A DNA stretch of 64,000 bases from an uncultured Pseudomonadales bacterium (GCA_964437755.1 CAYTIA010000002.1:34107-98106), one strand, 5' to 3'; shown: positions 43,139 through 59,039, counted from the first letter of the stretch. Made by a program: numbers and translations. Notes: generated by a model from the letters alone, not told the origin.

Positions 43139-44977
43139 ATGTCAAAAAACCCAAACCCAAATTTATCAAGCAACGAACAACAACTCTTGGCTTTACGTCA
43201 CAGCGCCGAACACGTACTTACCTACGCCATGCAGAGACTCTATGGTCAAGACAGAGTTATTATGGCAATGGGGCCAGCTACTGCCGATGGTTTTTACTTT
43301 GATTTTGATACTCCGGAAGATTTTATTGTTAATGAGCAAATGCTGGGCAAGATTGAGAAAGAGATGAAACAGTTAATCAAGGCAAATTTATCTCTGATTC
43401 AAATTAAAGTCACTTTGCCAGTGGCTCGATCGGTTTTTATTAACAATCCTTATAAGCAAGAGTGGCTTGATGGCATTGAAAGTGAAGGGGAGCAAGTTAG
43501 TTTATATCTAATGGGAACCAAAGAACAGTTAGAGAATGATCAAGCATTGTTCCAGAAAGCCCAGGATGGAGAGATCTTAGATCCTTCTATTCTGCAATCA
43601 TTTGTTGATCTGTGCAAGGGTCCTCATGTGGACTCTACAGGTGAAATAAAAGCTTTTAAGTTACTCTCAATTGCCGGTGCCTATTGGCATGGAGATGAAA
43701 AAAACAAGATGCTCACTCGTATTTATGGTACGGCTTTTAATACTCAAGAGGAACTAGATCATTATCTGTGGCAAATAGAAGAAGCTAAAAAGAGAGATCA
43801 CAAAAAAATTGGTCAGAAGCTTGGCTTGTTTATGTTTGATGAGGAGTTTGGGCAAGGCTTGCCTTTGTATAAGCCAAAAGGTGCAATGTTGCGCAAACTT
43901 ATTATGGATTTTGCTTTTGAAACATATCTCAAGCGAGGTTACCAACCAGTTTCTACGCCACATATTGCCAGGCGAGGCTTATGGGAAACTTCTGGACACT
44001 GGTTTTTTTATCGCGACTCGATTTATTCTCCAATGGAGGTCGATGGTGAGCAGTATTTGCTCAAACCAATGAACTGTCCTGGTCATGTGAAGATTTATAA
44101 CAATGATCTTCATAGTTATCGCGACTTGCCAGTTCGATTGGCAGAGATGGGCACTGTCTATCGATATGAAAAATCTGGAGAGTTAAATGGAATCTTGCGT
44201 CCACGTGGATTTACACAAGATGATGCACACATAATTTGTACCCCAGATCAGCTTCCGGCCGAACTATTAGAGGTAATCGATTTAACCAAGTTTATTTATT
44301 CGAGGTTTGGTTTTAATGATCCAGTAATCAGTTTGTCTGTTCGTGATCCAGAAAATAAATCTAAGTATATGGGGGATGATGATAGTTGGTCATTAGCCGA
44401 AAAAGCACTTGAGGAGGCCTTAATTGAAAAACAGTTGCCTTATCAAAGAATTGAGGGTGAAGCGGCTTTTTATGGTCCCAAGATAGATTTTATGTTTGAG
44501 GATGCTTTGGGTCGCAAGCAACAGCTTACCACCATCCAGGTTGATTTTAATCTGCCGGAGAAATTTGAAATGTACTACATCAACGAAAAAGGCGAAAAAC
44601 AACAGCCATTTATGTTACACAGAGCCTTATTGGGTTCTCTAGAAAGATTTATGGGAGTGTTGATTGAGCACACGGCTGGCAATTTTCCTTTCTGGTTGTC
44701 ACCAGTACAGGTAAAAGTATTGCCGATTACCGATGAGCAGATTGAATACGCTAATTCAGTAGTTGATCAGTTAAGAAAAGAAAATATTAGGGTTGAGGTT
44801 GATGATCGCAGTGCCACTTTGGGTGGCAAGATTCGTGATGCTGAAAGCGAGAGAGTTCCAGTGATGTTAATAGTTGGTGCTAGAGAAGCAGAAAGAGGTG
44901 AGGTGAGCATAAGGGAGAGAGATAAGAAGGAGCAGAGAGTAGTGAGGGTGGAGCTGTTATTGAAAGATATAGTGTAA
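43139..44977 (+). CDS. thrS: Threonyl-tRNA synthetase (lacks N-terminal TGS domain)
   Basis: 612 aa. Editing-domain HxxxH (LRHSAEHVLTYA). Class II motifs, FRDSIYSPMEVDGEQYLLKPMNCPGH, HRALLGSLERFMGVLIEHTAGNFPFWLSP. Anticodon-binding domain. Confidence 0.95.
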   Translation: MSKNPNPNLSSNEQQLLALRHSAEHVLTYAMQRLYGQDRVIMAMGPATADGFYFDFDTPEDFIVNEQMLGKIEKEMKQLIKANLSLIQIKVTLPVARSVFINNPYKQEWLDGIESEGEQVSLYLMGTKEQLENDQALFQKAQDGEILDPSILQSFVDLCKGPHVDSTGEIKAFKLLSIAGAYWHGDEKNKMLTRIYGTAFNTQEELDHYLWQIEEAKKRDHKKIGQKLGLFMFDEEFGQGLPLYKPKGAMLRKLIMDFAFETYLKRGYQPVSTPHIARRGLWETSGHWFFYRDSIYSPMEVDGEQYLLKPMNCPGHVKIYNNDLHSYRDLPVRLAEMGTVYRYEKSGELNGILRPRGFTQDDAHIICTPDQLPAELLEVIDLTKFIYSRFGFNDPVISLSVRDPENKSKYMGDDDSWSLAEKALEEALIEKQLPYQRIEGEAAFYGPKIDFMFEDALGRKQQLTTIQVDFNLPEKFEMYYINEKGEKQQPFMLHRALLGSLERFMGVLIEHTAGNFPFWLSPVQVKVLPITDEQIEYANSVVDQLRKENIRVEVDDRSATLGGKIRDAESERVPVMLIVGAREAERGEVSIRERDKKEQRVVRVELLLKDIV

Positions 44978-45046: not shown

Positions 45047-45565
45047 ATGACAGAAACAAAACAACAAGATATGGTTTTTAATGCAGAGTTAGAAAAAGTT
45101 CCTGAAAGAGAAGTGTTAATTGATATGCTACTATTAGATGAAGAGGATAGGCATAAAGAAGGAACTGTCGACGAATCTAGAGAAAAAGATCGCTCAGATT
45201 GGACTCAATCAATCGATCAAGGGGAGGTGCCTATTAAAAGTGAGTCACTGATGAGTGAAAAAGCTCAACAGTATCTAAAATGGATTAATAATGAAAAGCT
45301 CGGAGCGTCTAGATTTATTGATTTGCACTATGAATTAAAAGAAAAAGAGTATTTAAAAGGTGATGAGTTAGAGGTTGTTAAAAAAGCACTTTCTCAAGCA
45401 AGAGCGGATTACTGGATAACAAGGCTTGTTCCAAATCGCATAGGTGATTGGACTCTTGCAGATGTTATTGGTCGTTTAGAGGATGAGTATAAAAGTGGAC
45501 TATTATCAGAGACTGATGTGAAAAGAGCAGCTTTTGAAATAAAGAAACATTTAGAAAAGAGCTAA
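45047..45565 (+). CDS. Hypothetical protein
   Basis: 172-aa ORF, acidic, no motif. Confidence 0.4.
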   Translation: MTETKQQDMVFNAELEKVPEREVLIDMLLLDEEDRHKEGTVDESREKDRSDWTQSIDQGEVPIKSESLMSEKAQQYLKWINNEKLGASRFIDLHYELKEKEYLKGDELEVVKKALSQARADYWITRLVPNRIGDWTLADVIGRLEDEYKSGLLSETDVKRAAFEIKKHLEKS

Positions 45566-45584
45566 TTTTTAAACACTAAACAAC

Positions 45585-46253
45585 ATGTCTGAAAAAACAC
45601 CAATTTCAGAACTGACCCATCCACTAGAAGCTCTCTCGAAAGAGAGACTTAGAGCAATATATGAGGTTATGTTGCACAAGTCTCTTGAACATAGAGCAAT
45701 TAGTAATGAAGCTGCTGGGGCTACTAGCAAAGGTTTTCAAGAATCTCTTGAAGAGTGGGAAGGGGAAGATTATCCTCCCATTTCTGATTTTGTGGTATCA
45801 CATTCGGTTTTGAAGAAAAAACAGCCTGATTATGCTAGGCCACAATTGATTGTAAGCAGATATGAAGGAGATCCAGAAGCAGCTACTGGCTTAGGAAGTA
45901 ATGCATTTTATGAACTTGAATCTCAAAAGGATATAACGATTCAACTGCATGTTGAACGCAGGGTTCAGAAGGGTTTGCTGCCAGATGTTAGTATAAATGT
46001 AGTTCTTTATGAACCAGATTTATCAAGAGGTGGCGGGATGGTTTCTAAAACAAGGCTCAACATACACATTGAGCAAGAAGGAACATTATCAAATGAGTCA
46101 GAAGAGATCTTGGTGAGAAATATGGATGCTAATAGGATAGTAGTTTTCAACTCAGATGGAGAGGTGGCAAATGATGATCAAGATATTGACACCCAAGAGG
46201 TTAACAAGACAGTGGATCAATGCTTAGCTCTTGTTGAAAAAGTTCTAAAATAA
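45585..46253 (+). CDS. Hypothetical protein
   Basis: 222-aa ORF, no motif. Confidence 0.4.
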   Translation: MSEKTPISELTHPLEALSKERLRAIYEVMLHKSLEHRAISNEAAGATSKGFQESLEEWEGEDYPPISDFVVSHSVLKKKQPDYARPQLIVSRYEGDPEAATGLGSNAFYELESQKDITIQLHVERRVQKGLLPDVSINVVLYEPDLSRGGGMVSKTRLNIHIEQEGTLSNESEEILVRNMDANRIVVFNSDGEVANDDQDIDTQEVNKTVDQCLALVEKVLK

Positions 46254-46292
46254 TAAGTGGGTGGTATTTAAAAATTTTGCTTCAATTCTTTT

Positions 46293-47840
46293 TTAAGCTC
46301 CTTTTGTATTTAGAGCATCCACATTTATTAATTTTAACAAATGCTCTCTCATTGCTTTTGTTCCTTTTTGAAGAGGATGTTCACCAGTATCAAGTAAACT
46401 TATCTCCTTGATTAAATCATTAAAGTATTCTACTTTTTGTTTTAATAATTCAACTGCTTGTTCAGCTTTTGTTGCAAAAAGGGGAATGACTGCTTGGTAT
46501 GCTTCTAAAGCTTGTTGATCTGCTGTTATAGAATGAATTTCATGAAGTAATAAAGCTAGGCGAATTACATCAGGCTGATCATCCTCTTTCTCAAGCAATT
46601 GTCCAACATCTTTAGATATTTCTTCTAATCTACTAGCTGTTTTAGGCTCAAGATCAAGAGTGGAGAATCTGTCGGGATGAGCTAAGCGTTTTAGTTTTGA
46701 TTGCCATTTACGTCCTCCCCATAATTCTTGAGGATTTGCTTCGATCTTTCCAGATTCAAAAGTTGTATTATGAATTTGTTTCCCCTTGTAAAATGATCCT
46801 AACTCATCTGCTCCAGGGAAAGATGATCTCTTGATATCAAATAGTCTATAAATGCATTGTAAAGTGGAAAATAACTCTGTTGATTCTCTCTGTATTTCAA
46901 GAGGAATTTCACTCATTATAATTGCAGTTGCTTTTGTGATATCTTCTATAGCTGTTTGCAAAATTCTTAACTTTTTGAGTGGATCTGTTTCTGCATTAGC
47001 TCTTTCAATAATGTCGTTAATCGAAAATTGCTTTTTTTCTGGTGGATCTTGTGTTGAGTAGGGATCGGGTATCTCAGCTGTTTGATCGGGTTCAAGAGTT
47101 GATTGGTGAAGTTTTTCTTGAGACTCTGCTGTACTAAAGACTACATACTCTTCCATCTTTCCTGTTTTAATTAGTTCGGCGACCATAGCCTTATTTAGAC
47201 CATAAAGTAGCTGGTGAATTGTTTGCCAATCTGCCTTAGTAGCTGTATCATAAGTTTGTAATGCCTCGGCGTCAGCCACCCATGGCTCTTGGATCATTCG
47301 ATTAAGACCAAGTAATGAATGTTTTATTTTGGGCCAAAGTCTTCTAGCGCGGGTGTTTATTGGTCCACCCTCACAGCCATCACGAAAAGTTTGAGAAATC
47401 TCTGCCTCTTCTCCATATGTCACCCGAAATCTAATTTGTTTAGGGCCTCCTTTTTCATTAAGATTTGCTCTTAGACCATCACCCAACGTTGTTGATAGGC
47501 TGTCAATTACCCCAGCTCTTTGTTCTGTTATTGGAGAAACTCTTTCTAAAGCGAATTCTAATGCATTTGATTCTTTAGTTTGATGATCTACAAGTTGTAA
47601 ACATCTAATCAGTCTGAATTTTGCATCAGGGGTGATTCTTGCTGCTTGTGCATCCATGGGTGAAAAAAATAACAAGCTGTTTGGGAATGCTCCCTTGCCC
47701 GGATACAAAAATTTTGCCAAATTTGCTGCTTGTTGTGCTAACGTTACGACCTCATTTCTAAATTCAGCTTCTACTAGAACTTCATTTTCAAATTGTTTAA
47801 GTAAGTCTGGACGTGAATTTGCTTCTGGGGGGTTTGTCAT
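46293..47840 (-). CDS. Hypothetical protein
   Basis: 515-aa ORF. No signal peptide. Predicted mostly helical. No motif. Confidence 0.45.
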   Translation of the reverse strand: MTNPPEANSRPDLLKQFENEVLVEAEFRNEVVTLAQQAANLAKFLYPGKGAFPNSLLFFSPMDAQAARITPDAKFRLIRCLQLVDHQTKESNALEFALERVSPITEQRAGVIDSLSTTLGDGLRANLNEKGGPKQIRFRVTYGEEAEISQTFRDGCEGGPINTRARRLWPKIKHSLLGLNRMIQEPWVADAEALQTYDTATKADWQTIHQLLYGLNKAMVAELIKTGKMEEYVVFSTAESQEKLHQSTLEPDQTAEIPDPYSTQDPPEKKQFSINDIIERANAETDPLKKLRILQTAIEDITKATAIIMSEIPLEIQRESTELFSTLQCIYRLFDIKRSSFPGADELGSFYKGKQIHNTTFESGKIEANPQELWGGRKWQSKLKRLAHPDRFSTLDLEPKTASRLEEISKDVGQLLEKEDDQPDVIRLALLLHEIHSITADQQALEAYQAVIPLFATKAEQAVELLKQKVEYFNDLIKEISLLDTGEHPLQKGTKAMREHLLKLINVDALNTKGA

Positions 47841-47920
47841 AAATTTTTTACTGTCATTTAATATTTATCTTAATAATGTTAACATTTTAATTAGCAAAAG
47901 TTAATCGTATATATGTTTTA

Positions 47921-48148
47921 ATGATTAAGATAACCACAAAAAAACTTTTAAGTGAGATCACGCTGTTTTTAATTGATCAACTTGAAAAAAATGAGATATC
48001 TATAGGTAGAGTTAAGAAAATATCTCGACAGATTTTGGCTGTTTTTCCAGATGAAAAGTGTGATAAAGATGAATTTCCAGTTGAGGTATTATCGCAGTTA
48101 ATAGAAATACCTGAAATTGATACCTTTTTTCAACAAAAGAAATGGTAG
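47921..48148 (+). CDS. Hypothetical small protein, translationally coupled to giant gene
   Basis: 75 aa. Stop overlaps start of 48142 ORF (ATGGTAG). Confidence 0.35.
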   Translation: MIKITTKKLLSEITLFLIDQLEKNEISIGRVKKISRQILAVFPDEKCDKDEFPVEVLSQLIEIPEIDTFFQQKKW

Positions 48149-51100
48149 CAGAAACGCCTCATCAAGAAGTAAACGCAGCCCAATCAAGGGAAGGAGAGTT
48201 TAGATTACGCGATTTATTAAGTGTTTTAAAAAGAGTAGCAGGACAAGAACCTCGGGTGGTACTTGCAACTTTTGTTAATATTGATGAATTTTTACCAACT
48301 GAGCAACAAAAGCAGCTAGTTAGTGAATTGCGTTGGGATCTTGGTGAAAAGAGAAAAACATATCGAAAATTTAAAGAGGCAGGAGTGAATCCTGAAAAGG
48401 CTCTGGATTTAATTGAATATCTTCAGAATGAGATACAGTTTTGCTCAGAGAAAGAGGAAGGTGAAGATAAGTCATGTGCGGGAGAAAAGATCTGTAAAAA
48501 TTACCGATATGAAGAAGGAGATTTTAGATATATTTGTAAATTGATTTCTCTTTCTGATGATCCAATTCAGCTTGTGATAGATATGGGGGAATTATTAGAT
48601 TTTAATGGTTATTATTCCTATCCATCAAGATTTATTTATCATCTTGCAGAATATGCAGAATCATTTTATCAAGCTCAACTTTCTCCACATTATCCTGAGG
48701 TTATTTCTTTAATAGGGGAGTTTTCAGGTGAGTCAGTTAAGATTAATTTCTCCGATTCTTCTTTTCGGTTCAACGAACAAGCTCAAAGAGACGAAAGACA
48801 ATTGAATAGAGTATATAGAGCAGTTCAAGATCCAGTGATTGTATTATCTAACATGGATCAGGTTGAGTTTAAGGGATTGTCCAATGGAGAAAATGTAAGG
48901 AGAGCAAAAGAGCTGTGGAATGAAATGTCTCAAGGAAAGAGTTTAAGGATAGAGTATATTCCAGAGTTATTAACCCTAGCTAATGATACTCAGCTTGCAA
49001 TTGGTTTTAAAGAAATGCTTGCTTACGATGGTCGATTAATGACGAAGATATACGAACAAGAACCTCAACAATTTGCTATTGCCATTGCGCGATTAAAAAA
49101 ACTCAAAGATGAAGTGCCTGAATTATGGGATCTACTTAAGTCTGGCTTTGATATTTCATGGTCATTTGACTATCCTCGTATGTATGGTTCAGATCCTCTT
49201 GATGTTTCGCAAATAGCTCAGCGTAGATACTCGTTTCAAGAAATATTGGCTAGTCAAAAACTAGTAACAAATGCACAGATTGTAGCTAGATATGATGATG
49301 AAAAATTAGAGGCAAGATCTTCCTTTGACGATATTTCTGATTATAAAAGGTATCGTTATACTTCCGATCCAGAAACTCTTGAGAAGAGTTATATTGCAGC
49401 TTATTCACTTGGACAGATATTTCAAAGATCGCGTTTTTCTGACATAAATAGGTACTATTTATGGCAAAACATAACTGAAACTGGCTGTCTAGATCATTTA
49501 TCAATTGAACAACTCAATCAGTTATTTACCCCTTTTGCTCAACTCATAGCAACAAAAGACTCTTCTTTTGTGGATGTTTTAGCTAAGATGGAGCCAAAGC
49601 TTTCTGATGTTATTGGATTAAGTCCCTCATTGGTTGAAGCTAAGGACCGTTTGGAGAAATTGTTATCAGATGAGATGCGGCTAATTGTGTCTGATAAGTC
49701 TTTTATGGATACTGTTTTTGGTGGAGAAATCTCTGGAGCAAGAGACTGGGAATTGATTCTTTCCAATTTGGATCAATATTATCAGCTCTTTCAAAAAAAA
49801 GATGAATTAGAGGCAAAAATTCATCTGTTAGAACACCCCGAATCAGGAGGGTATAGAGTTTCTGTCACTAGAGATTTGCAATTACTATTTTTAGTTTTAG
49901 AAATACCAGATTCGGTTTTAATCGAAATGTCAGAAGAGTCTGCCTCTTTACATCTAACGGTGAATTCAGATGCTGTAAGAAGATATATCTCTTACAGACT
50001 TCTCACTGATGCTGAAAAACAACAACTGCTTGATGGTGTTGGCAGTCAAAAGTATCAAAATGCAATCAAAAGTATTTACGATACAAGACTAAGCCTTACT
50101 GATCTAAGAAAATATATTATGCTTGATTCTGAAAAAAAAGACAAAGTTTGGGAGATGGTAACTCAGTTAGAAGCGGAATTGCACATTAGTGTGGCAAATT
50201 TTAGTGATACTAATGATCTTATCGGATTTCCTCTTGGGTTTTTATGTGAGTTGGTATCAAGCGACTCACTTTATGTGACTTTTGAGAATTTTATCTCTCA
50301 TGTTTTAGATGAACAAGACGATTCGATTGATTCTAATGGCAGACTTAAATGTTTTAGAATATGTGCAATTTTGTTAGCTAATCATCAACAAGATTTAGAA
50401 TTTAATTTTAATGAATATATTACACCACAGGGAGTACCTACTTCAAAGTTATTACTTGAGTTAGCTAATTCCAATCTTACAAATTTACACTGGGTGAGAC
50501 CATATATAACTGATCAATCCTTGCAGGAGATGGAGGAAGACGATCGAAACTTCTGGAAATTTTGGATTACTTTTAATGATGATACAAATTTCCAAAGATA
50601 TCTGCTTGAAAATAAATCAAGATTTGCTGAGTGGATTCAGGATGGAGTGGCGACACACGCTTTTATCTTGGAATTAGCTAGAAACAATCTTGCCGGAATC
50701 GGAACGATTCAAAAACTAATTGAACCAGCTTTATTAAAGATGTCGAAAGATGAAACAGACTTTTGGTCTTTTTGGAAAACATCTTCAGCTGTTGAGAGGA
50801 GGGTGATTACTTCGAATAATGAGCGCTTTTCCCAGCTAGTTGTTGAAGGCGTTCCTACTGCAGTTTTCTATGAATTGGTTGCTAAAGAAAGTCCAGAACA
50901 TTTCATGGAAAACTATGACATCAATGATCTTGCCTCTGACTTAGATCAGAGAACTAGATTTAGAGAAATTGTTTTACAAGCTTTTATTGATAAACATACT
51001 CAGAATCCATATTTTCAAATGGTTTATCGTTTATTAAAAGGAGAGATTGCCGACAGGGGTGTAATAAGTGAATCAATTAAAGAGATGTTTAATCAGGGCT

Positions 51101-53061
51101 ATGGCATGGAGGTTGATGAAGAGTTTGTCACAACTCTTGATCAGTATATAGAAAATTCTCAAGAAGAAAAATACAATCCTATCATTCCAGATAGAGAGGC
51201 CTTTTGGAATGAAAATATACGAATATATTTAGCAGTAAGGAAACTCAAATGGACAATTAATGGATTTGAAAGATTTAGGAGTCTCGTCCAAAATTCTGCT
51301 GTTAATCAAATTTTAAGTGATGAAGGAAATATTGTTCGTTTGCAACAAATATCACCAAAAATTGGGTTAAATGCTAATAATATTTTTTATGTGAATAGTA
51401 CCTCGTTGTTATGGTTGTACGAGAATTCTTCAGTTGAACCTTGTGTTGGATTTTTTAGAAGAATTCTTAATGAGAAGCCAACAAGTTTGAATAGTTGCGC
51501 CTTAACCTTTAGTCAGATTTCTGAAGGAAAAAGAGCTTTACTTTTTACAGATCCTTTATACCAAGAAAGGTTATTTGAAGCGATGGGAGAGTTTAAGAAT
51601 GTCGTTCCATCTTTAATTGACGGCTATGTTTTAGAAGACGATTTAAATGAAAGAGTTGCTTTTAGAGAAAAAATTAACGAGTTTAGAAGACGAGTTCATC
51701 GGAACCTACCGATTTTAGACCTTGTAAAGAATTATGAAGATAGAAGAACTATTGCTGACATGATTGCTCTTACCTTTCCTGGAACAAATCAAGGTGGTAT
51801 CTTGTCACAGATTGAGATGGCAGGCGATAGGTGTGATGATCTTAAGGAACTAACTATCAGGGATGAAGGTTATGTTGGTCAAATCTTTTCTAGAGAGAAG
51901 ATGGTTATTTTGAGGGAGGCTAATCAGCCAATTGACGAGGGAATAATCAATTTATTAAGATCAGTATTTTCTCTTCCCCAAGAAAGACCACAAAATCAGG
52001 ACAAAGAGGCTCAACTAGCATCTAAAGGTTGGTCAAGGCTAATCAAAGAAGCTGGTTCAACTAAAAGTGAAGTATTTTTAGCTACAGCTATGAGCGAGGC
52101 TATTGCCTGTGTACGAGTGGCCATGGGTGAAAAAGTTGAACAGTTCTATGAAATGATCTCAAGGGATCTTTCTCAGGTACAAAGTAAAGCAGAGTTGTTA
52201 ACAAAAGCTAAAGAGTTGTTTGGTATTTATTATAAGGATAATGCAACTGAGGCAATTGATCAGTTCTTGACTCAAAATTCAGATATTGAGCAGCGACTTT
52301 TAGGACAGCTATCACCAAAAAGAATTCAAGCATTAGAAAAAAACATCGGTTCTTCGAGAACAATAAGTGAAGCTAAAAGACAAGAATTTTTGCAGATTAT
52401 AATCAATTTAAAAGATCCTCAAACTCCTGAAGTAAAAAGAAAAGCATTGGCTGGATTGTTAGCATTTTTATCAGAGAGGGGTTTGTTTGCTGGTAGCCAG
52501 GGTTTGCGTAAAAAAGTAGATAATGAGTTGGCCAAGTTGGTTTTAGTAGATAAAGAGGGAGAGGATGCAGTAGATGAATCATTGTTACTAAGAGGTTTTG
52601 CTACAAAAAATGCAGCTTCCTTTTTTGCTAAAACTACAGCTGGTATTTGTACAGCTCAAGACTTTGGTTTATATCATCGACCAGATCATTTTCATATAAA
52701 TCTAATTAATCAAGAAGATGTTGTGGTGGGAAATATTCAAGGGTATTTGGTCGAAGATTTTGAGGGCGAAAGAGCCGTAATATTTAGAGGTTTTAACCCT
52801 TCATCCAGCATTGTTAGTTCAACTAATGCTGCGGTTATTTGTGATCAAATGGTAAGTATTGTGAGGCAGCTTGCCGCAGACAATGGAATAAAACACGTTT
52901 TAATACCCCAGCAAAATAATTGGCATCCACTAACCAATCGAGTTGGTGAGGGAATAGTTGAATATTTTGCCTCTCGTTTTTATAAAGAAGAAAATAAAGT
53001 TGATTTTCAATTTAATATTACTGAAACGCAGGAAGTGAATACTTTTTATAAGATGGCCTAG
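48142..53061 (+). CDS. Giant hypothetical protein (1639 aa) with internal tandem repeats
   Basis: Uninterrupted 4.9-kb ORF, no signal peptide or TM. At least two about 70-aa tandem repeats (GVPTSKLLLELANSN..EEDDRNFWKFWITF..NKSRFAEWIQD and GVATHAFILELARNN..KDETDFWSFWKTS..NNERFSQLVVE), with a third partial copy. C-terminal about 130 aa with conserved-looking Cys/His/Asp positions (GICTAQDFG..HRPDHFH..). Confidence 0.6.
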   Translation: MVAETPHQEVNAAQSREGEFRLRDLLSVLKRVAGQEPRVVLATFVNIDEFLPTEQQKQLVSELRWDLGEKRKTYRKFKEAGVNPEKALDLIEYLQNEIQFCSEKEEGEDKSCAGEKICKNYRYEEGDFRYICKLISLSDDPIQLVIDMGELLDFNGYYSYPSRFIYHLAEYAESFYQAQLSPHYPEVISLIGEFSGESVKINFSDSSFRFNEQAQRDERQLNRVYRAVQDPVIVLSNMDQVEFKGLSNGENVRRAKELWNEMSQGKSLRIEYIPELLTLANDTQLAIGFKEMLAYDGRLMTKIYEQEPQQFAIAIARLKKLKDEVPELWDLLKSGFDISWSFDYPRMYGSDPLDVSQIAQRRYSFQEILASQKLVTNAQIVARYDDEKLEARSSFDDISDYKRYRYTSDPETLEKSYIAAYSLGQIFQRSRFSDINRYYLWQNITETGCLDHLSIEQLNQLFTPFAQLIATKDSSFVDVLAKMEPKLSDVIGLSPSLVEAKDRLEKLLSDEMRLIVSDKSFMDTVFGGEISGARDWELILSNLDQYYQLFQKKDELEAKIHLLEHPESGGYRVSVTRDLQLLFLVLEIPDSVLIEMSEESASLHLTVNSDAVRRYISYRLLTDAEKQQLLDGVGSQKYQNAIKSIYDTRLSLTDLRKYIMLDSEKKDKVWEMVTQLEAELHISVANFSDTNDLIGFPLGFLCELVSSDSLYVTFENFISHVLDEQDDSIDSNGRLKCFRICAILLANHQQDLEFNFNEYITPQGVPTSKLLLELANSNLTNLHWVRPYITDQSLQEMEEDDRNFWKFWITFNDDTNFQRYLLENKSRFAEWIQDGVATHAFILELARNNLAGIGTIQKLIEPALLKMSKDETDFWSFWKTSSAVERRVITSNNERFSQLVVEGVPTAVFYELVAKESPEHFMENYDINDLASDLDQRTRFREIVLQAFIDKHTQNPYFQMVYRLLKGEIADRGVISESIKEMFNQGYGMEVDEEFVTTLDQYIENSQEEKYNPIIPDREAFWNENIRIYLAVRKLKWTINGFERFRSLVQNSAVNQILSDEGNIVRLQQISPKIGLNANNIFYVNSTSLLWLYENSSVEPCVGFFRRILNEKPTSLNSCALTFSQISEGKRALLFTDPLYQERLFEAMGEFKNVVPSLIDGYVLEDDLNERVAFREKINEFRRRVHRNLPILDLVKNYEDRRTIADMIALTFPGTNQGGILSQIEMAGDRCDDLKELTIRDEGYVGQIFSREKMVILREANQPIDEGIINLLRSVFSLPQERPQNQDKEAQLASKGWSRLIKEAGSTKSEVFLATAMSEAIACVRVAMGEKVEQFYEMISRDLSQVQSKAELLTKAKELFGIYYKDNATEAIDQFLTQNSDIEQRLLGQLSPKRIQALEKNIGSSRTISEAKRQEFLQIIINLKDPQTPEVKRKALAGLLAFLSERGLFAGSQGLRKKVDNELAKLVLVDKEGEDAVDESLLLRGFATKNAASFFAKTTAGICTAQDFGLYHRPDHFHINLINQEDVVVGNIQGYLVEDFEGERAVIFRGFNPSSSIVSSTNAAVICDQMVSIVRQLAADNGIKHVLIPQQNNWHPLTNRVGEGIVEYFASRFYKEENKVDFQFNITETQEVNTFYKMA

Positions 53062-53128
53062 AGATAAACATATTTCTAATTGGTTATAGAACACGCATAT
53101 TGATAGCACTTTCAAACTAGTTAGCAAA

Positions 53129-53332
53129 ATGAAAATCTATATGAAAAAAGCATTACCAACTCAAGTATATAGAATCTTGATGACTATATTAAATAGGCTT
53201 GAAAAAGGAGAAATTGATCTACCTGAGGCTTCTAAACAAGCAAAGATAATCAAAAGGGTTCTTAATGAGATAGATAGTAATGGTCAACAAAAAGCTTTAG
53301 ATTTATTAAATCAACTATCAAAAGAATTATGA
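53129..53332 (+). CDS. Hypothetical small protein
   Basis: 67 aa. Stop overlaps next start (ATGA). Confidence 0.3.
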   Translation: MKIYMKKALPTQVYRILMTILNRLEKGEIDLPEASKQAKIIKRVLNEIDSNGQQKALDLLNQLSKEL

Positions 53333-54048
53333 GCCAAGAAGAGTTGTTGACGATTTTGGCTACCCCACAAGCTGAAAAAAGCAATGGAACGACTTCTGCT
53401 TTAGAAATATATCATCAGTTAAAACAAGTAGAAAAACAGGTTCTTCTTGATCCAAGAATGTCAAGTGAAGTATTGATTGCTTTCACAAGGATTGTCCATA
53501 ATCTTCCTAACTTTGATTTTTCAAGGAACGATGAGTTTGAAATAAGTGAGCCGATAATTATCAATGGTGTATCCATGAGTTTAAGTTTGTTAATCAAAAC
53601 TGATCCAGACAAATTAGACAGATGTTTAACCGCGAGACTCAGTTTTAATTTATCAGATAACGATAACCCCTTTTCATCACCAATGATTGATAAACCAATG
53701 GGAATCTTAGACTCTGGAGAGCTCTGTTGTAGAGAGATAAGATTTAACTCAAAAAAATCAACAACACTAGTTGAAGGAGTTTCAAGATCGAGGTCAGTTG
53801 AAATAACGAGAGGTTTACCAACTCAACTTTTTCTTTTGGCTCATTTTTTAACAAGAGCATTGATAGCAAAAAGTAAATTTTCAGGAAAAATTTTGGCAAT
53901 TATTGAAGATGCCGCCGTAGATCAAAAAACTAGAACTTCTTCTGGTTGGTCTGGTCGTAGGGCTACCGAAATAGGTTTTAAAAAAAGTAGGTTCCACCAA
54001 CTTTTGTTGAGGAGCTCTCATCCTTGTTATACTTATCAGTATCAATGA
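53329..54048 (+). CDS. Hypothetical protein
   Basis: 239-aa ORF, no motif. Confidence 0.4.
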   Translation: MSQEELLTILATPQAEKSNGTTSALEIYHQLKQVEKQVLLDPRMSSEVLIAFTRIVHNLPNFDFSRNDEFEISEPIIINGVSMSLSLLIKTDPDKLDRCLTARLSFNLSDNDNPFSSPMIDKPMGILDSGELCCREIRFNSKKSTTLVEGVSRSRSVEITRGLPTQLFLLAHFLTRALIAKSKFSGKILAIIEDAAVDQKTRTSSGWSGRRATEIGFKKSRFHQLLLRSSHPCYTYQYQ

Positions 54049-54068
54049 AAACTGTATTTTGAACAATT

Positions 54069-55223
54069 ATGACTAAAGAAGATCGTAATGAAAGATTGGG
54101 AATTGGGGAAAGACTTAATTCACTTATAAAACAACTAAGAGCTCTTCTTGATCAGGGTAGGGGGTCAGAGGTGTTAGATATTTTGGCAGAAGTTGTACCT
54201 GATGAAGAACCCGTTGGCGAAGAAAATGCTGATGACGCAGAACTCGATCTTTTTCCAGGTGATGAGATCTTTTGGAATCCTGAGCTAAGATCAGTTGAAT
54301 CTCAAAAAATGATTCCCAGATCAGAAGATGATCAAGAAGCTCAGCAGCATCAAGAACAACAGGGGAGTATCTTGAAGAGTAAAGAGGAAATAGCTGAAAA
54401 AATATCTCCAGCAGACTGTGTTGAAAAAGCAACAATGTATTGCAGGTTGGTTGATAATGCTCACTTACCTAAAGAATTAATGAAACTGGTTATAGATCGT
54501 TTGGTGCTTTGGAAATTAATTGACCTCAATGATATTTCTGATAATATTTTTGAAAATTATCATCAATTTAGTGGTTTTATAAAAAATGTGCAAAGAGTAA
54601 GAATCGCTCAGCATAATAGTGAATTTATCAATGCTTTTAATAATGACCCATGGAATGGAGAGCCAATTGAGGCAGAATACACAGATGACGAGCTCGGAAA
54701 ATGGCCGTATCTCCATTTAGAAGCAATTAAAAAAAGTCTGGGAGATTCTTCGAAGTTTATTTTTAGAGTACAAAAGAATTTTTTTACAATGGTGCTTACA
54801 GAGCAAGATGATGGCTCAAGACAAATTGTAAGGCTAGCATCTTCCCAGAGGTCACAAGATCAGGTTCAAAATGATGTTTTAAATATGCCAGATATAATTC
54901 CAAAAACCGAAATAATTGCAGTTGGAAATAATGAGTATGTTATGTTAATTGAATGGATAAATGGAAAGACTCCGCAGACAGAGGCAGAAAAATTGAGGTG
55001 CTATCAAGCAGCGGAGGCTCTTTTAGTAGTGCCAATTGGAGAAGAAAATTTATATGACTTAAACTCAGGAAATTTTCTTATTGTGAATAATGATGGAGTC
55101 GAAAAAATTTACTATGTTGATAGAGATATACCAGCGAGTATTGTAAAAAATGGATTAGACCCAGATGGAGTTGAGTCAAGAAGAAATCAGTTTGAACGAT
55201 CAAAGAATGAGAAAGTTCGCTAA
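54069..55223 (+). CDS. Protein with C-terminal protein-kinase-like (APH/Kdo/RIO-type) fold domain and acidic N-terminal region
   Basis: 384 aa. C-terminal region has hinge-like VMLIEWINGKT, catalytic-loop-like DLNSGNFLIVNNDG (compare DLHPGNILV) and metal-binding-like YYVDRD (compare IDFG/IDWE). Confidence 0.4.
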   Translation: MTKEDRNERLGIGERLNSLIKQLRALLDQGRGSEVLDILAEVVPDEEPVGEENADDAELDLFPGDEIFWNPELRSVESQKMIPRSEDDQEAQQHQEQQGSILKSKEEIAEKISPADCVEKATMYCRLVDNAHLPKELMKLVIDRLVLWKLIDLNDISDNIFENYHQFSGFIKNVQRVRIAQHNSEFINAFNNDPWNGEPIEAEYTDDELGKWPYLHLEAIKKSLGDSSKFIFRVQKNFFTMVLTEQDDGSRQIVRLASSQRSQDQVQNDVLNMPDIIPKTEIIAVGNNEYVMLIEWINGKTPQTEAEKLRCYQAAEALLVVPIGEENLYDLNSGNFLIVNNDGVEKIYYVDRDIPASIVKNGLDPDGVESRRNQFERSKNEKVR

Positions 55224-55260: not shown

Positions 55261-56058
55261 TTACTCTTCCCACTCAACTTTAACTCCGGGACTCATGGAG
55301 GCGGCAATAATCACCTTAACGAGTCTTCCCTTAAAAGCTTTAAATAAAGCCTGTAAGTTTTCAACTAAATGAGCTGTTTCCATATCTGTTTTACCAATGG
55401 ATACATGCATGAGTGGAGCTTTTCTTTCGGTTTTAAGCATCATGCTACCTGCTTGAAGCTCTTTTTGTCTTTGTTCCGGATTGGTAGTAAGGGTACCGCT
55501 TTTTGGATTTGGCATTAGGCCTTTTGGACCCAAAACTGGAGCAAACTTGGTTAATTTAGCCATGAACTGAGGGGTAGAGATCAAGACATCAAAGTCGATG
55601 TTATTGTTCTCTATCTTTTTTAAAGTTTCTTCTGAGGCAATCTCAACCACTTTTGACTGTCCGGTGGAATGGGGTAGAGAGATTTCTTTACTAATACCAA
55701 TTTCTCTAACTGTAAGGTGAGCAGAAATAGTACCGACAAATTTAGAATATGAAAGTTTCTTAACTAATTCCACAGCTGACTCTGCATCATAGCTTTTTGT
55801 TCGATCTACTTTTGAGCGAACTGCCTGATATTTTTTACTTCTGTGTTTTATTTTTTTTAAAGTTGGTGTCTTTTTTACTTCCTCTTGATTTGATTCAACC
55901 ACTGTTTCAGCACCATCTGCCACTTGCGTAACTTCTTTTACTACTTTCTCTTCAGCTTTTGGTTTTTCAGCTTTGGTTTTTTTTGCAACTTTTTTAGTTT
56001 TCTCTTTTTTTTCTTCTGTCATTTTTGTAGACATATCAACTGGTTTTTTTGATCCCAT
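55261..56058 (-). CDS. rplA: 50S ribosomal protein L1 with about 65-aa Lys/Glu-rich N-terminal extension
   Basis: FDVLISTPQFMAKLTKFAPVLGPKGLMPNPKSGTLT and LPHSTGQSKVV match L1. N-terminus MGSKKPVDMSTKMTEEKKEKTKKVAKKTKAEKPKAEEK. Confidence 0.9.
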   Translation of the reverse strand: MGSKKPVDMSTKMTEEKKEKTKKVAKKTKAEKPKAEEKVVKEVTQVADGAETVVESNQEEVKKTPTLKKIKHRSKKYQAVRSKVDRTKSYDAESAVELVKKLSYSKFVGTISAHLTVREIGISKEISLPHSTGQSKVVEIASEETLKKIENNNIDFDVLISTPQFMAKLTKFAPVLGPKGLMPNPKSGTLTTNPEQRQKELQAGSMMLKTERKAPLMHVSIGKTDMETAHLVENLQALFKAFKGRLVKVIIAASMSPGVKVEWEE

Positions 56059-56196
56059 AAAAAAATCTCCTTAAGATAATTATTTTGTAATAGTAATATT
56101 TATTTATATAATTTTGTTCTCGTAACGCATCCGCTCTTGAGGAAACAGACGCTGGAACATTTTTTTCTTTAGTTAGAAGATAATTTCTTTTGTCTT

Positions 56197-56619
56197 CTAT
56201 ACAATCTTCACACCCATACTTTTAGCTGAACCCATAACGGTTTTAATTGCAGCATCAATATCTGTGGTATTAAGATCTGGCAATTTAGTTTCAGCTATTT
56301 GCTTGACCTGATCCATGGTTAGCTCACCGATAATATTAGTTTTTGGTTCTTTACTACCTTGTTTTTTGCCAATGACTTTGAGAATCATGGCTGAAACTGG
56401 AGGTAACTTAAGTTCAAAAGTAAAAGATCGATCTTGATAAACGGTAATTTCTGCAGGAATAATCTCGCCACGCTTATCGGCTGTTTTATCATTGTACTGC
56501 TTGATGAAGTCCATCATGTTGATACCAGCTTGACCCAAAATAGGTCCAACTGGCGGAGCGGGCGTGGCTGCTCCTGCAGGTAAATTTAATTTAAGAACAT
56601 TAAGTATTTTTTTTGCCAT
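56197..56619 (-). CDS. rplK: 50S ribosomal protein L11
   Basis: PAGAATPAPPVGPILGQAGINMMDFIKQYN...TFELKLPPVSAMILK matches L11. Confidence 0.95.
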   Translation of the reverse strand: MAKKILNVLKLNLPAGAATPAPPVGPILGQAGINMMDFIKQYNDKTADKRGEIIPAEITVYQDRSFTFELKLPPVSAMILKVIGKKQGSKEPKTNIIGELTMDQVKQIAETKLPDLNTTDIDAAIKTVMGSAKSMGVKIV

Positions 56620-56682
56620 AATTCTTTCTAAGTTGGTTATTCTATCATAATTTAATTAAATGACGGTCAAATATACTAGAAA

Positions 56683-57369
56683 CTAGATTTTTTCAACTTG
56701 TAAAAAATCAAGCTCAACTGGGGTTTCTCTTCCAAAAATATTAATTAATACAGTTACTTGAGCCTTGTTCTCATCTATCTTTTGAACTGTGCCCAAGAAC
56801 TCGTTAAATGGACCATCGGTAATTTTAACTGCCTCACCCTCGGTGTACTCAGCTTTGTATTGAGGAGTTGCTTGTTGAGCATACTTAGTGATGGCATCAA
56901 CCTCATATGCTGGAATTGGGCTAGGACGGCTACTAGCACCGACAAAACCCGTTACTCCTTGAGTAGTACGAACTGCTAACCAAGCATCATCTTCCATAAT
57001 CATATTGACCAACATGTATCCTGGAAAAACCTTTTCGGTGATGGTTTTTCTTTGACCTTTACGAATCTGAATTTTTTCTCTGGTTGGAATTAAAACCTTA
57101 ATAATTTTGTCGGTAAGATTTAGGGTAGTGGCGCGTTGTTTTAGAGTTTCAGCTACTTTGTTTTCTCTACCCGAATAGGTGTGAACTACATACCAATGAG
57201 CTTTGTCATTATCCTCATCGGCAATACGAACCAAATTTGGATCGTTGACTTCAACCTCCTGGACATCAGGAACTTTTGGAGTATTGGTGTTATCTGTGTT
57301 TCCCAGTTGCTCGGGGACTTCTTCTGGCTGTTTATCTTGAGTTGTTTGTGTAGTTTGATCTGTCATCAC
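56683..57369 (-). CDS. nusG: Transcription termination/antitermination factor NusG (with about 55-aa N-terminal low-complexity extension)
   Basis: WYVVHTYSGRENKV NGN domain and C-terminal KOW (GEAVKITDGPFNEFLGTVQKID). Confidence 0.9.
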   Translation of the reverse strand: MMTDQTTQTTQDKQPEEVPEQLGNTDNTNTPKVPDVQEVEVNDPNLVRIADEDNDKAHWYVVHTYSGRENKVAETLKQRATTLNLTDKIIKVLIPTREKIQIRKGQRKTITEKVFPGYMLVNMIMEDDAWLAVRTTQGVTGFVGASSRPSPIPAYEVDAITKYAQQATPQYKAEYTEGEAVKITDGPFNEFLGTVQKIDENKAQVTVLINIFGRETPVELDFLQVEKI

Positions 57370-58775: not shown

Positions 58776-58847
58776 GCCGAAGTAGCTCAGGGGTAGAGCA
58801 CCATCTTGGTAAGATGGTGGCCATGGGTTCGAATCCCATCTTCGGCT
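58776..58847 (+). tRNA. tRNA-Thr (anticodon GGT)
   Basis: Acceptor GCCGAAG/CTTCGGC, D-arm GCTC..GAGC, anticodon stem CCATC/GATGG with loop TTGGTAA, T-loop TTCGAAT, discriminator T. Confidence 0.8.
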
Positions 58848-58883
58848 CAGAAAAAAATGAAATAACTGGCTTTGGAAATTAAA

Positions 58884-58957
58884 GCCAACGTAGCTCAGCT
58901 GGCTAGAGCAGCGGTTTTGTAAACCGCAGGTCGTGAGTTCGAGTCTCACCGTTGGCT
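58884..58957 (+). tRNA. tRNA-Thr (anticodon TGT)
   Basis: Acceptor GCCAACG/CGTTGGC, D-arm GCTC AGCTGGCTA GAGC, anticodon stem GCGGT/ACCGC with loop TTTGTAA, short variable loop, T-loop TTCGAGT, discriminator T. Confidence 0.8.
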
Positions 58958-59039
58958 CATGAAATTTAACAAGAGGGATGGCTGGTTTTGTGTTATAATC
59001 CCATCCTCTCAAGAAAACAAGAAAATATAAAGGAAGAAT

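Follow-up and report, generated by a model that had tools for sequence, protein, structure and literature searches.

The question raised by the locus described here is what kind of system is encoded between thrS and rplA in a 64,000-nucleotide stretch of DNA from an uncultured Pseudomonadales bacterium (GCA_964437755.1, CAYTIA010000002.1:34107-98106), a stretch which is referred to below, at its full length, as the window. The interval at positions 45047 to 55223 had been described in an earlier note, made from the sequence alone, as an island of eight open reading frames (ORFs) without recognizable homology, dominated by a giant protein of 1639 amino acids (aa). We propose, at a probability of roughly 45%, that the region is an accessory island in which a small protein and the giant protein belong together, the latter uniting a helical scaffold and repeats, an all-alpha domain, and a GNAT transferase, and in which a further gene, o384, carries a swappable tail. 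ORFs are named here by their length in aa, and numbers prefixed with L designate the loci fetched from other genomes. The features on which this proposal centers are listed below.

47921-48148, plus strand: o75, a small helical protein of 75 aa, with an overlap of 7 nucleotides (nt) between its stop codon and the giant start
48142-53061, plus strand: the giant protein of 1639 aa, with a net charge of -66 and without a transmembrane segment; full-length orthologs number five (65 to 100% identity), and it is under purifying selection (ratio of nonsynonymous to synonymous substitution rates [dN/dS] of 0.145)
50431-50847, plus strand: two tandem repeats of ~70 aa (residues 764-834 and 835-902), supported by z = 18.8 and a repeat hidden Markov model (HMM)
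51409-52515, plus strand: a conserved domain, predicted to be all-alpha, which is placed before the GNAT domain in part of the family (residues 1090-1458; AlphaFold2 model mb2d779e1657b and module HMM)
52516-53058, plus strand: a C-terminal domain with a predicted GNAT fold (residues 1459-1639; AlphaFold2 model), with near-invariant K1489, K1497, C1503, D1507, H1516, H1518, N1531, Y1535, R1549, N1552, P1553, and R1600

Relatives of the giant protein were sought by an exhaustive HMMER search with residues 440-1639 as the query (alignment A2), relatives being counted as clusters at 50% identity. This search returned 303 cluster representatives at an E value of ≤1e-3 and 197 at ≤1e-10, nearly all of which align to the last ~160 to 180 residues of the giant protein. 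An HMM of the domain located the corresponding region in 138 of the 149 best matches, where it is nearly always C-terminal in proteins of 800 to 1850 aa (one of 3409 aa), a location which sets it apart from known GNATs; when the HMM was extended to cover residues 1090-1639, it was matched by 33 representatives from within its first 60 positions to past position 530 of 548. The label of ORFan previously applied to the giant protein is not borne out by a C terminus with so many relatives, one of which is encoded on a Burkholderia cenocepacia plasmid. Residues 1459-1639 gave no match in Pfam, NCBIfam, or the PDB sequences, even at an E value of ≤10, none of the curated acetyltransferase profiles matched the whole giant protein or any of 40 sampled family members, and the family was not found in IMG/VR viral contigs. 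What had been supposed to be an orphan represents the founding description of a large, widespread family without a database name, which comprises at least 303 clusters (50% identity) with a confidently predicted fold and invariant residues.

Among 136 domain sequences, conservation of 86 to 100% was apparent at S/T1488, K1489, N1490, S1493, F1494, F1495, A1496, K1497, G1501, C1503, T1504, D1507, H1516, F1517, H1518, N1520, N1531, Y1535, R1549, G1550, N1552, P1553, and R1600, with C1503, D1507, H1516, and H1518 being conserved at 86 to 99%. A conserved-looking Cys/His/Asp spacing had been singled out in the earlier note; because of this level of conservation, its portion GICTAQDF...HFH is considered a genuine, near-invariant family signature, while its VED element is not conserved. 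Judging from these residues, the giant protein ends in a conserved module of ~180 aa which is probably enzymatic.

The fold of this module was predicted with AlphaFold2, both for residues 1459-1639 (model meedd8d9e8c81, 36-sequence alignment; predicted local distance difference test score [pLDDT] of 87.7, predicted template modeling score [pTM] of 0.82) and for residues 1090-1639 (model mb2d779e1657b, 22-sequence alignment; pLDDT of 88.9, pTM of 0.77). The last 155 residues are predicted to follow the GNAT order b1-a1-a2-b2-b3-b4-a3-b5-a4-b6-b7, while residues 1090-1458 are modeled as helices throughout, except for one hairpin, and gave no structural match. A Foldseek search with the modeled C terminus, one of the checks suggested in the earlier note, returned GNAT-type neighbors, the nearest to the model being NatD/Naa40, Gcn5, Naa80, Naa50, RimI, RimJ, and RimL; these support the GNAT fold, with none at an E value of ≤1e-3 (best, 6e-3). 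On the basis of these models, the C terminus of the giant protein is a divergent GNAT fold. Its Cys/His/Asp spacing had been suggested to mark a thiol-hydrolase or transglutaminase-like catalytic module, a proposal which is rejected because the model displays a GNAT fold and neither a papain-type nor a transglutaminase fold. A glutaredoxin- or thioredoxin-like reading of the FFAK..GxC segment, prompted by a weak PDB profile match (E value of 0.012), is likewise ruled out by the GNAT model, and a tandem-GNAT (FemX/DUF2156-like) architecture was discarded because the domain which precedes the GNAT domain is all-alpha.

These results also bear on a reading of the locus as an effector module or one for interaction with a host, where the giant repeat protein, ending in a domain like a thiol hydrolase or a transglutaminase, would act together with a secreted kinase-like enzyme. 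The invariance of the C-terminal Cys, His, and Asp residues would be in keeping with such a module, whereas a C terminus modeled as GNAT rather than as a papain or transglutaminase fold would not. Furthermore, no transmembrane-like segment or hydrophobic N terminus was found in any of the eight ORFs, the top 19-mer Kyte-Doolittle hydropathy being below 1.6 in each, which upholds the initial claim that signal peptides are absent, and recognizable trafficking domains are lacking as well; the remaining evidence on this reading concerns o384 and is given with that gene.

The domain shares its core fold with members of the GNAT superfamily such as NatD/Naa40 (PDB 4u9w), a T. thermophilus acetyltransferase (PDB 3exn), and Gcn5 (PDB 1ygh), from which it differs in sequence (5 to 17% identity) and in motif A. 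The Q/R-x-x-G-x-G/A form of this motif, associated with the pyrophosphate of coenzyme A (CoA), is absent from the b4-a3 loop, its place after strand b4 being taken by an invariant R-G-F-N-P, beyond which the residues vary and a Gly pair is not conserved. An invariant K/K/C/D/H/H/N/Y/R cluster is distributed, in the model, over helix a1, the loop between a1 and a2, and strands b2 and b3; in GNAT enzymes, a1, the a1-a2 loop, b2, and b3 form the acceptor side. To our knowledge, C1503, D1507, H1516, and H1518, together with the Lys/Arg cluster, have no counterpart in known GNATs, and it is plausible from the model that these four residues form a metal site or an acyl-enzyme center.

The more N-terminal part of the giant protein contains the tandem ~70-aa repeats that had been noticed by eye, which proved to be real: residues 764-834 and 835-902 align with a Smith-Waterman score of 99, compared to 22.8 ± 4.1 for shuffled sequences (z = 18.8), while a third GVPT unit was not significant. 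A profile search with the repeat, using an iterated HMM, detected exactly two copies in the window protein and one to seven copies in 25 of 154 large proteins (24 in addition to that of the window), some of which are without a GNAT domain; no Pfam domains were found in six repeat-bearing proteins. The repeat is accordingly viewed as a module of a "dark" class of large proteins.

The contexts in which the family occurs were drawn from 75 metagenomic loci. Seven of the 40 sampled members harbor an anticodon-binding OB domain of the AspRS/LysRS/AsnRS type, a class II catalytic core was found in two and a GAD domain likewise in two, and an N terminus resembling aspartyl-tRNA synthetase (AspRS) was present in 18 of 149 representatives. 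A related arrangement has been described for ErdS, a fungal AspRS-DUF2156 fusion which transfers Asp from tRNA to ergosterol (PMC7334510, PMC8913301). Compared with ErdS, the MprF C-domain, and FemX, these 18 representatives likewise join an AspRS-like region to a C-terminal domain of predicted GNAT fold; in contrast to ErdS, the GNAT domain of the giant family is single rather than tandem and is not of the DUF2156 type, and the window protein is devoid of a fused aminoacyl-tRNA synthetase. Several of the AspRS-like fusions (among them L070:4821-10519, L076:4745-10498, and L078:4936-10540) are located directly after, or overlap, a nonribosomal peptide synthetase (NRPS) gene of adenylation-thiolation-condensation (A-T-C) organization, with dehydroquinate-synthase-like and xylose-isomerase-like genes nearby on these higher-GC contigs, which have the appearance of an uncharacterized biosynthetic cluster.

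Members of ~870 aa reside within genuine diversity-generating retroelement (DGR) cassettes in which a target gene, a template repeat (TR), a bAvd-like gene, a reverse transcriptase gene that overlaps the start of the homolog, the homolog itself, and a second target follow each other (L025, L026, L027, and L041). Mismatches between the TR and the variable repeat are nearly confined to adenines; in L025 (TR, 366-479; variable repeat, 4457-4570), 20 of 21 mismatches fall at TR adenines. Variation in these cassettes is not directed at the GNAT-family gene, which may represent an unrecognized DGR accessory gene. Another member, WP_011695161.1 (1105 aa, annotated as "hypothetical protein"), is encoded at L081:6316-9633 on a Burkholderia cenocepacia HI2424 plasmid (NC_008545.1); it matches the domain at an E value of 1.5e-31, possesses the signature residues, and lies on this conjugative plasmid within an accessory island which also harbors an integrase, DUF4238 and FRG genes, and a type VI secretion cluster consisting of VgrG/Tle (alpha-beta hydrolase)/Tli4/PAAR. 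As B. cenocepacia HI2424 is cultivable, the chemistry of the family is directly testable through this homolog. By eye, the genes downstream of giant homologs resemble a type I restriction-modification system in L007 and a pair of MazG-like and DUF2075-like genes in L013. Taken together, these contexts suggest accessory, conflict-related, or biosynthetic roles, with tRNA-linked chemistry in one branch, and point to a chemistry unlike that of characterized GNATs, for which tRNA-linked acyl transfer and a metal-dependent GNAT reaction are candidates.

It is proposed that the giant protein is built from a long helical N-terminal scaffold bearing the two 70-aa repeats, followed by the all-alpha domain and, finally, by the GNAT-fold transferase. 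The scaffold and repeats would bind a macromolecular or anionic substrate, onto which the GNAT domain would transfer an acyl group (acetyl or aminoacyl), a tRNA-linked substrate being among the possibilities. The Cys/His/His/Asp cluster would function as the metal site or acyl-enzyme site, and o75 might serve the giant protein, as o67 might serve o239, as a dedicated partner in the capacity of chaperone, adaptor, or inhibitor. A bolder version of this mechanism would regard the helical and GNAT module as a new class of transferase acting on tRNA- or RNA-linked substrates, with aminoacyl-tRNA as donor or target and with the Cys/His/His/Asp center replacing the CoA loop, which has been recruited repeatedly into conflict and diversification contexts (giant proteins of the candidate phyla radiation [CPR], DGR cassettes, AspRS/NRPS loci, and Burkholderia plasmids); we consider this version unlikely.

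Several points weigh against the proposed assignment. That the invariant residues cluster in space is deduced from their secondary-structure positions, and nowhere is confidence in the model lower than in the a1-a2 loop, which carries C1503 (pLDDT of 63 to 68). The low identity to solved GNATs (5 to 17%) and the best Foldseek E value of 6e-3 leave room for the GNAT domain to be a noncatalytic binding module, which it could be, and the structural neighbors are ordinary acetyl-CoA-dependent N-acetyltransferases (NatD, Gcn5, and the Rim enzymes) rather than aminoacyl-tRNA transferases. Because the window protein is without an aminoacyl-tRNA synthetase domain, the link to tRNA rests on distant paralogs. 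The island may not be one functional system, as conservation of o67, o239, o515, and o384 does not reach beyond the closest relatives. Finally, the attribution of the host to the CPR is inferred from the name of one family member, low GC content, and metagenome sources.

The remaining genes of the island and its flanks, to which the partnership between small and large proteins has to be related, are as follows.

43139-44977, plus strand: the threonyl-tRNA synthetase (ThrRS) gene, thrS; best PDB match, S. aureus ThrRS (1nyq), at 531 bits
45047-45565, plus strand: o172, an acidic, variable accessory protein of 172 aa with no domain (ORF list)
45585-46253, plus strand: o222, a strain-specific accessory protein of 222 aa with no family match
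46293-47840, minus strand: o515, a divergently transcribed gene for a protein of 515 aa with an HPD motif (KLKRLAHPDRF); orthologs in L001 and L002
47841-47920, no strand: an AT-rich divergent spacer of 80 bp between o515 and o75
53129-53332, plus strand: o67, a small helical protein of 67 aa and paralog of o75, with an ATGA overlap with o239
53329-54048, plus strand: o239, a conserved protein of 239 aa; orthologs in L001, L002, L003, and L005
54069-54383, plus strand: the head of o384 (384 aa), i.e., its N-terminal ~105 aa, conserved in the family; the whole gene spans 54069-55223
54384-55223, plus strand: the strain-specific C-terminal ~280 aa of o384, with the motif DLNSGNFLIVNNDGVEKIYYVD at nt 55056-55121 (motif statistics)
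55261-56058, minus strand: the ribosomal protein L1 gene, rplA; Pfam Ribosomal_L1 on orthologs of 89% identity

All eight ORFs reported between thrS and rplA are present at the coordinates originally given for them, seven on the plus strand and one, o515, on the minus strand, an orientation which had gone unmentioned. Direct reading of the sequence confirmed the overlap ATGGTAG at 48142-48148, which joins the o75 stop codon to the giant start codon, the overlap ATGA at 53329-53332 between o67 and o239, and a 20-nt gap (54049-54068) which precedes o384. The operonic layout deduced from these features stands insofar as co-oriented, translationally coupled genes are concerned; it does not extend to all eight genes as one operon, given that o515 is divergent and that o172 and o222 are absent or replaced in close relatives. 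In agreement with the reported lack of recognizable homology, none of the eight proteins was matched by Pfam, NCBIfam, PADLOC, or PHROGs (a weak PADLOC hit of o67, given below, aside), and there were no matches in PDB sequence searches with the giant protein and o384 or in PDB profile searches with the o239 and o515 families.

The small genes o75 and o67 are paralogous, as the o67-family HMM matches o75 at an E value of 2e-5 and the cross-matches are reciprocal. Conservation of o75 upstream of the giant gene was observed in L001, L002, L005, L008, L011, L013, and L016, the last four of which encode a giant C-terminal domain of 55 to 59% identity with the o75-like gene directly upstream. Because only the closest relatives possess o67, o239, o515, and the o384 head, it is o75 and the giant protein that are regarded as the robust unit, and o67 and o239 look as if the "small partner plus protein" organization had been duplicated locally. 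Homology of o75/o67 to the N-terminal head of o384 was discounted (hhalign E value of 0.13 over 11 columns). By eye, o239 may itself be a GNAT, but a relationship to the GNAT domain at the giant C terminus was likewise discounted (hhalign probability of 0.1%).

The fact that each small gene lies directly upstream of, and overlaps, its partner, together with the paralogy of o75 and o67, raises the possibility of toxin-antitoxin-like pairs, in which the GNAT domain (and perhaps o239) would be an aminoacyl-tRNA acetylating toxin of the TacT/AtaT type and o75 and o67 would be the antitoxins. Gene order and overlap are indeed like those of type II GNAT systems (TacAT, AtaRT, and KacAT), and the tRNA anticodon-binding domains of distant family members, as well as the defense-like genes seen by eye downstream in L007 and L013, would fit such a function. 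However, the giant protein, at 1639 aa, is tenfold larger than stand-alone GNAT toxins (~160 to 200 aa), its conserved residues differ from theirs, and TacT is not among its top structural neighbors. Moreover, no ribbon-helix-helix (RHH)/DUF1778 or other DNA-binding match was found for o75 or o67 in Pfam or NCBIfam (o67 has one weak PADLOC helix-turn-helix match, at an E value of 0.005), most family members are without a small upstream partner, and o239 bears no similarity to the GNAT domain. Such pairs are judged to be a quite unlikely explanation.

As regards o515, a role as a J-domain protein was considered but not adopted: the HPD motif is the only feature in common, alignment to the L005 J-domain or to that of E. 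coli DnaJ reaches a z of ~2, which is not significant, and no Pfam or PDB match was obtained. A DnaJ domain was present in one of the 40 sampled members of the GNAT family.

The preference for an accessory island built around o75 and the giant protein draws further on the evolution of the region, for which dN/dS values were calculated by the Nei-Gojobori method. The giant protein yielded 0.145 in both comparisons, with its lowest value, 0.086, in the all-alpha domain; the values were 0.21 for o515, 0.26 to 0.27 for o239, 0.19 to 0.29 for o67, 0.29 for o75 (versus L002), and 0.52 for the o384 head, compared to 0.03 to 0.07 for the flanking thrS, rplA, rplK, and nusG. These values indicate that the island genes are kept by selection but evolve several-fold faster than their neighbors. 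The eight ORFs are genes; a lack of purifying selection or of conservation in relatives would have told against the original description, and dN/dS proved to be below 1 in the genes compared, with orthologs present in relatives. Island proteins share 50 to 70% identity among relatives whose ThrRS proteins share 90%, and four full-length relatives of the giant protein, at 65 to 89% identity, were identified.

Conservation of the gene neighborhood was likewise evident, in that a core of o515, o75, the giant gene, o67, o239, and the o384 N terminus is syntenic between thrS and rplA in four related metagenomic contigs (L001, L002, L005, and the fragment L003), an arrangement to which the fragment L004 also conforms, with the left part of the island and the o384 C terminus being replaced. 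No homolog of o222 was detected among the 80 fetched loci, and o172 has a homolog in L002 only (57% identity, split into 59 and 112 aa), being absent from L001 and L005. Orthologs of o239 share 51 to 82% identity in L001, L002, L003, and L005, and those of o515 share 63 to 70% in L001 and L002; in L005, whose giant protein is 89% identical to that of the window, o515 is cut to a 47-aa N-terminal remnant. The space of o515 in that locus (L005:5774-9699) is occupied by two genes, whose products measure 224 aa and 1018 aa, the longer one having a true DnaJ domain (Pfam E value of 2.8e-13). On the reading proposed here, the region represents a strain-variable accessory island at a fixed site between thrS and rplA of a low-GC genome, encoding soluble, acidic, fast-evolving, and selectively maintained proteins.

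Synonymous divergence (dS) between the window and L005 was 0.37 for the giant gene, 0.45 for o67, 0.31 for o239, and 0.41 for the o384 head (window positions 47921-54368), as opposed to 0.75 for thrS, 0.51 for rplA, 0.66 for rplK, and 0.87 for nusG in the flanks. The identity of the giant protein is 89% to L005 versus 66% to L002, whereas that of ThrRS is 92% versus 90%. The lower dS of the island and this contrast in identity suggest a recombinational exchange of the island that is more recent than any affecting the flanks.

Such exchange invites the view that the site is a recombination hotspot which holds unrelated, lineage-specific genes, the giant protein being a housekeeping-type modifier, for example in protein N-acetylation on a helical scaffold in the manner of eukaryotic NatA or NatB. 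The likeness of the giant protein, a long helical region fused to a GNAT, to the Naa15-Naa10 arrangement, the protein N-terminal and ribosomal-protein acetyltransferases that head the list of structural neighbors, and the position of the island among ribosomal-protein and translation genes would all be in line with this view, as would the varying neighbor content among relatives and the dS versus L005 of 0.31 to 0.45 in the island against 0.51 to 0.87 in the flanks. A housekeeping role is less readily reconciled with the replacement of the acetyl-CoA motif by family-specific invariants, with the patchy distribution of the family, whose surroundings are accessory (a plasmid island, DGR cassettes, or NRPS clusters), and with an evolutionary rate 2 to 4 times that of housekeeping genes, and the conservation within the clade of the o75-giant and o67-o239 couplings does not suggest unrelated genes. 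This explanation is deemed doubtful, albeit with some real weight.

A functional link of the island to thrS was also dismissed, since the adjacency is kept only within the close clade and since L017 and L052, which also have a ThrRS-like neighbor, have it as part of a different conserved block. Equally, a mobile element or prophage origin was set aside on account of the absence of flanking repeats, of an integrase and tRNA gene within the island, and of a GC anomaly (the island GC content of 34 to 38% is like that of the flanks), and of the family from IMG/VR viral contigs; the tRNA genes closest to the island, at 58776-58958, lie outside it. Membership of the island in a defense system was rejected in view of zero PADLOC matches. 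Promoter- and terminator-like matches were not above shuffled controls. An inverted repeat with 21-nt arms (47865-47885 and 47913-47933), which are 81% complementary and 27 nt apart, lies in the spacer between o515 and o75, extends into the o75 start codon, and may represent an operator or an mRNA structure.

The accessory island, as proposed, further includes o384, whose relatives differ markedly beyond a constant head of ~105 aa. The head is 67% identical to that of a 484-aa protein in L005 and ~30 to 33% identical, over the N terminus only, to those of proteins of 776 aa in L001 and 765 aa in L002. The L005 protein contains an HExxH region, and the L001 and L002 proteins contain the same HExxH region plus an extra C-terminal domain, which scores 22.1 to 23.8 bits against N_Asn_amidohyd (PF14736), below the cutoff of 24, and weakly against DUF5700. 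No homolog of o384 residues ~106 to 384 was found in a search of 5.8 billion proteins or in the fetched loci, including the closest relative (that with the giant protein of 89% identity), such that the C termini of the window, L005, and L001/L002 are unrelated. By sequence, the o384 family appears to combine a constant head with interchangeable enzymatic C termini, which would be Zn-peptidase-like and deamidase-like in the relatives, as in polymorphic effector or toxin loci. These loci are known for a constant head and interchangeable tails (Zhang et al. 2012, PMC3482391). The swapping of C termini between close strains behind a constant N-terminal head is a likeness that o384 shares with them (PMC3482391); in contrast to them, o384 has no recognized trafficking domain and no recognizable immunity gene downstream, where rplA lies on the opposite strand, and the toxin-domain assignments of its relatives are subthreshold. 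Two genes of unknown function are found downstream of the o384 relative in L001.

The tail of o384 had been assigned a protein-kinase-like catalytic loop and a DFG-equivalent motif, of which the motif itself is present and unlikely to have arisen by chance, while no kinase profile of Pfam or NCBIfam and no PDB sequence matched o384 at an E value of ≤10. Residues 330-351 (DLNSGNFLIVNNDGVEKIYYVD, DLNSGN...YYVD) fit the pattern D-L-x3-N-[FIL]-L-I followed by V-D, a regular expression which, having been written after the sequence was seen, gave 0.003 matches per shuffled island set. In a background of 392,778 aa it gave three matches, namely, o384 and one protein on two contigs, which belongs to Pfam RIO1 (E value of 1e-51) and has no pairwise similarity to o384. 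A hinge-like YVMLIEWING is located by eye ~40 residues upstream, with a spacing near that in the RIO1 protein of L019. Compared to RIO, Bud32, and Kdo kinases, the D-L-x-x-x-N-[FIL]-L-I segment, the V-D 21 residues later, and the hinge-like spacing are alike; profile and pairwise similarity are lacking, and the tail is very short, with 33 residues after the putative metal-binding (DFG-equivalent) Asp. An Arg in IVRLAS occupies the position expected for the ATP-binding Lys, and by eye there is neither a Gly-rich loop nor a VAIK-type lysine in register. A minimal kinase-like domain at the o384 C terminus is, from this motif, possible.

For the effector module introduced above, the statistically unusual motif, whose sole other occurrence in the background is a RIO1 kinase, and the effector-like or toxin-like swapping of enzymatic C termini are favorable. 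They are offset by the lack of a kinase profile or PDB match at an E value of ≤10, by the short stretch after the DFG-equivalent Asp and the substituted Lys, and by the absence of the kinase-like part from all relatives, which means that the giant protein cannot depend on it as an obligate partner. With the predicted GNAT fold also counted, we judge the effector module to be very unlikely.

A RIO1-type kinase gene is found immediately downstream of a family member on two contigs of ~52% GC (L019:2225-3028 and L020:5381-6184), a neighborhood which parallels the idea of a giant protein with a kinase-like enzyme and is probably coincidental; the host of these contigs may be archaeal or otherwise unusual.

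The lineage that hosts the island probably belongs to the Patescibacteria/CPR, NCBI having given the name "Patescibacteria group bacterium" to one family member; its small genome size is inferred. The related contigs presumably derive, from their accession prefixes, from groundwater- and digester-type metagenomes. The window ThrRS scored better against that of S. aureus than against that of E. coli. For CPR biology, the locus would provide a fixed site between core translation genes at which genes for large proteins are exchanged rapidly, alongside one gene whose enzymatic C termini can be swapped; their products are candidates for tools with which to interact with hosts or competitors.

The usual secE-nusG-rplK-rplA-rplJ-rplL block seems to be broken after rplA in this lineage (L001:1-694; window positions 55261-57369), and in L001 rplJ and rplL are located ~20 kb away, past the island, thrS, and several membrane-protein genes. 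L003 and L004 (CAZQWI010000041.1 and CAZQWI010000123.1) are short contigs which carry island genes and encode an RplA 88% identical to that of the window; their GC content of 34 to 36% and their gene content suggest that they were misbinned in a metagenome-assembled genome labeled "uncultured Pseudomonadales bacterium."

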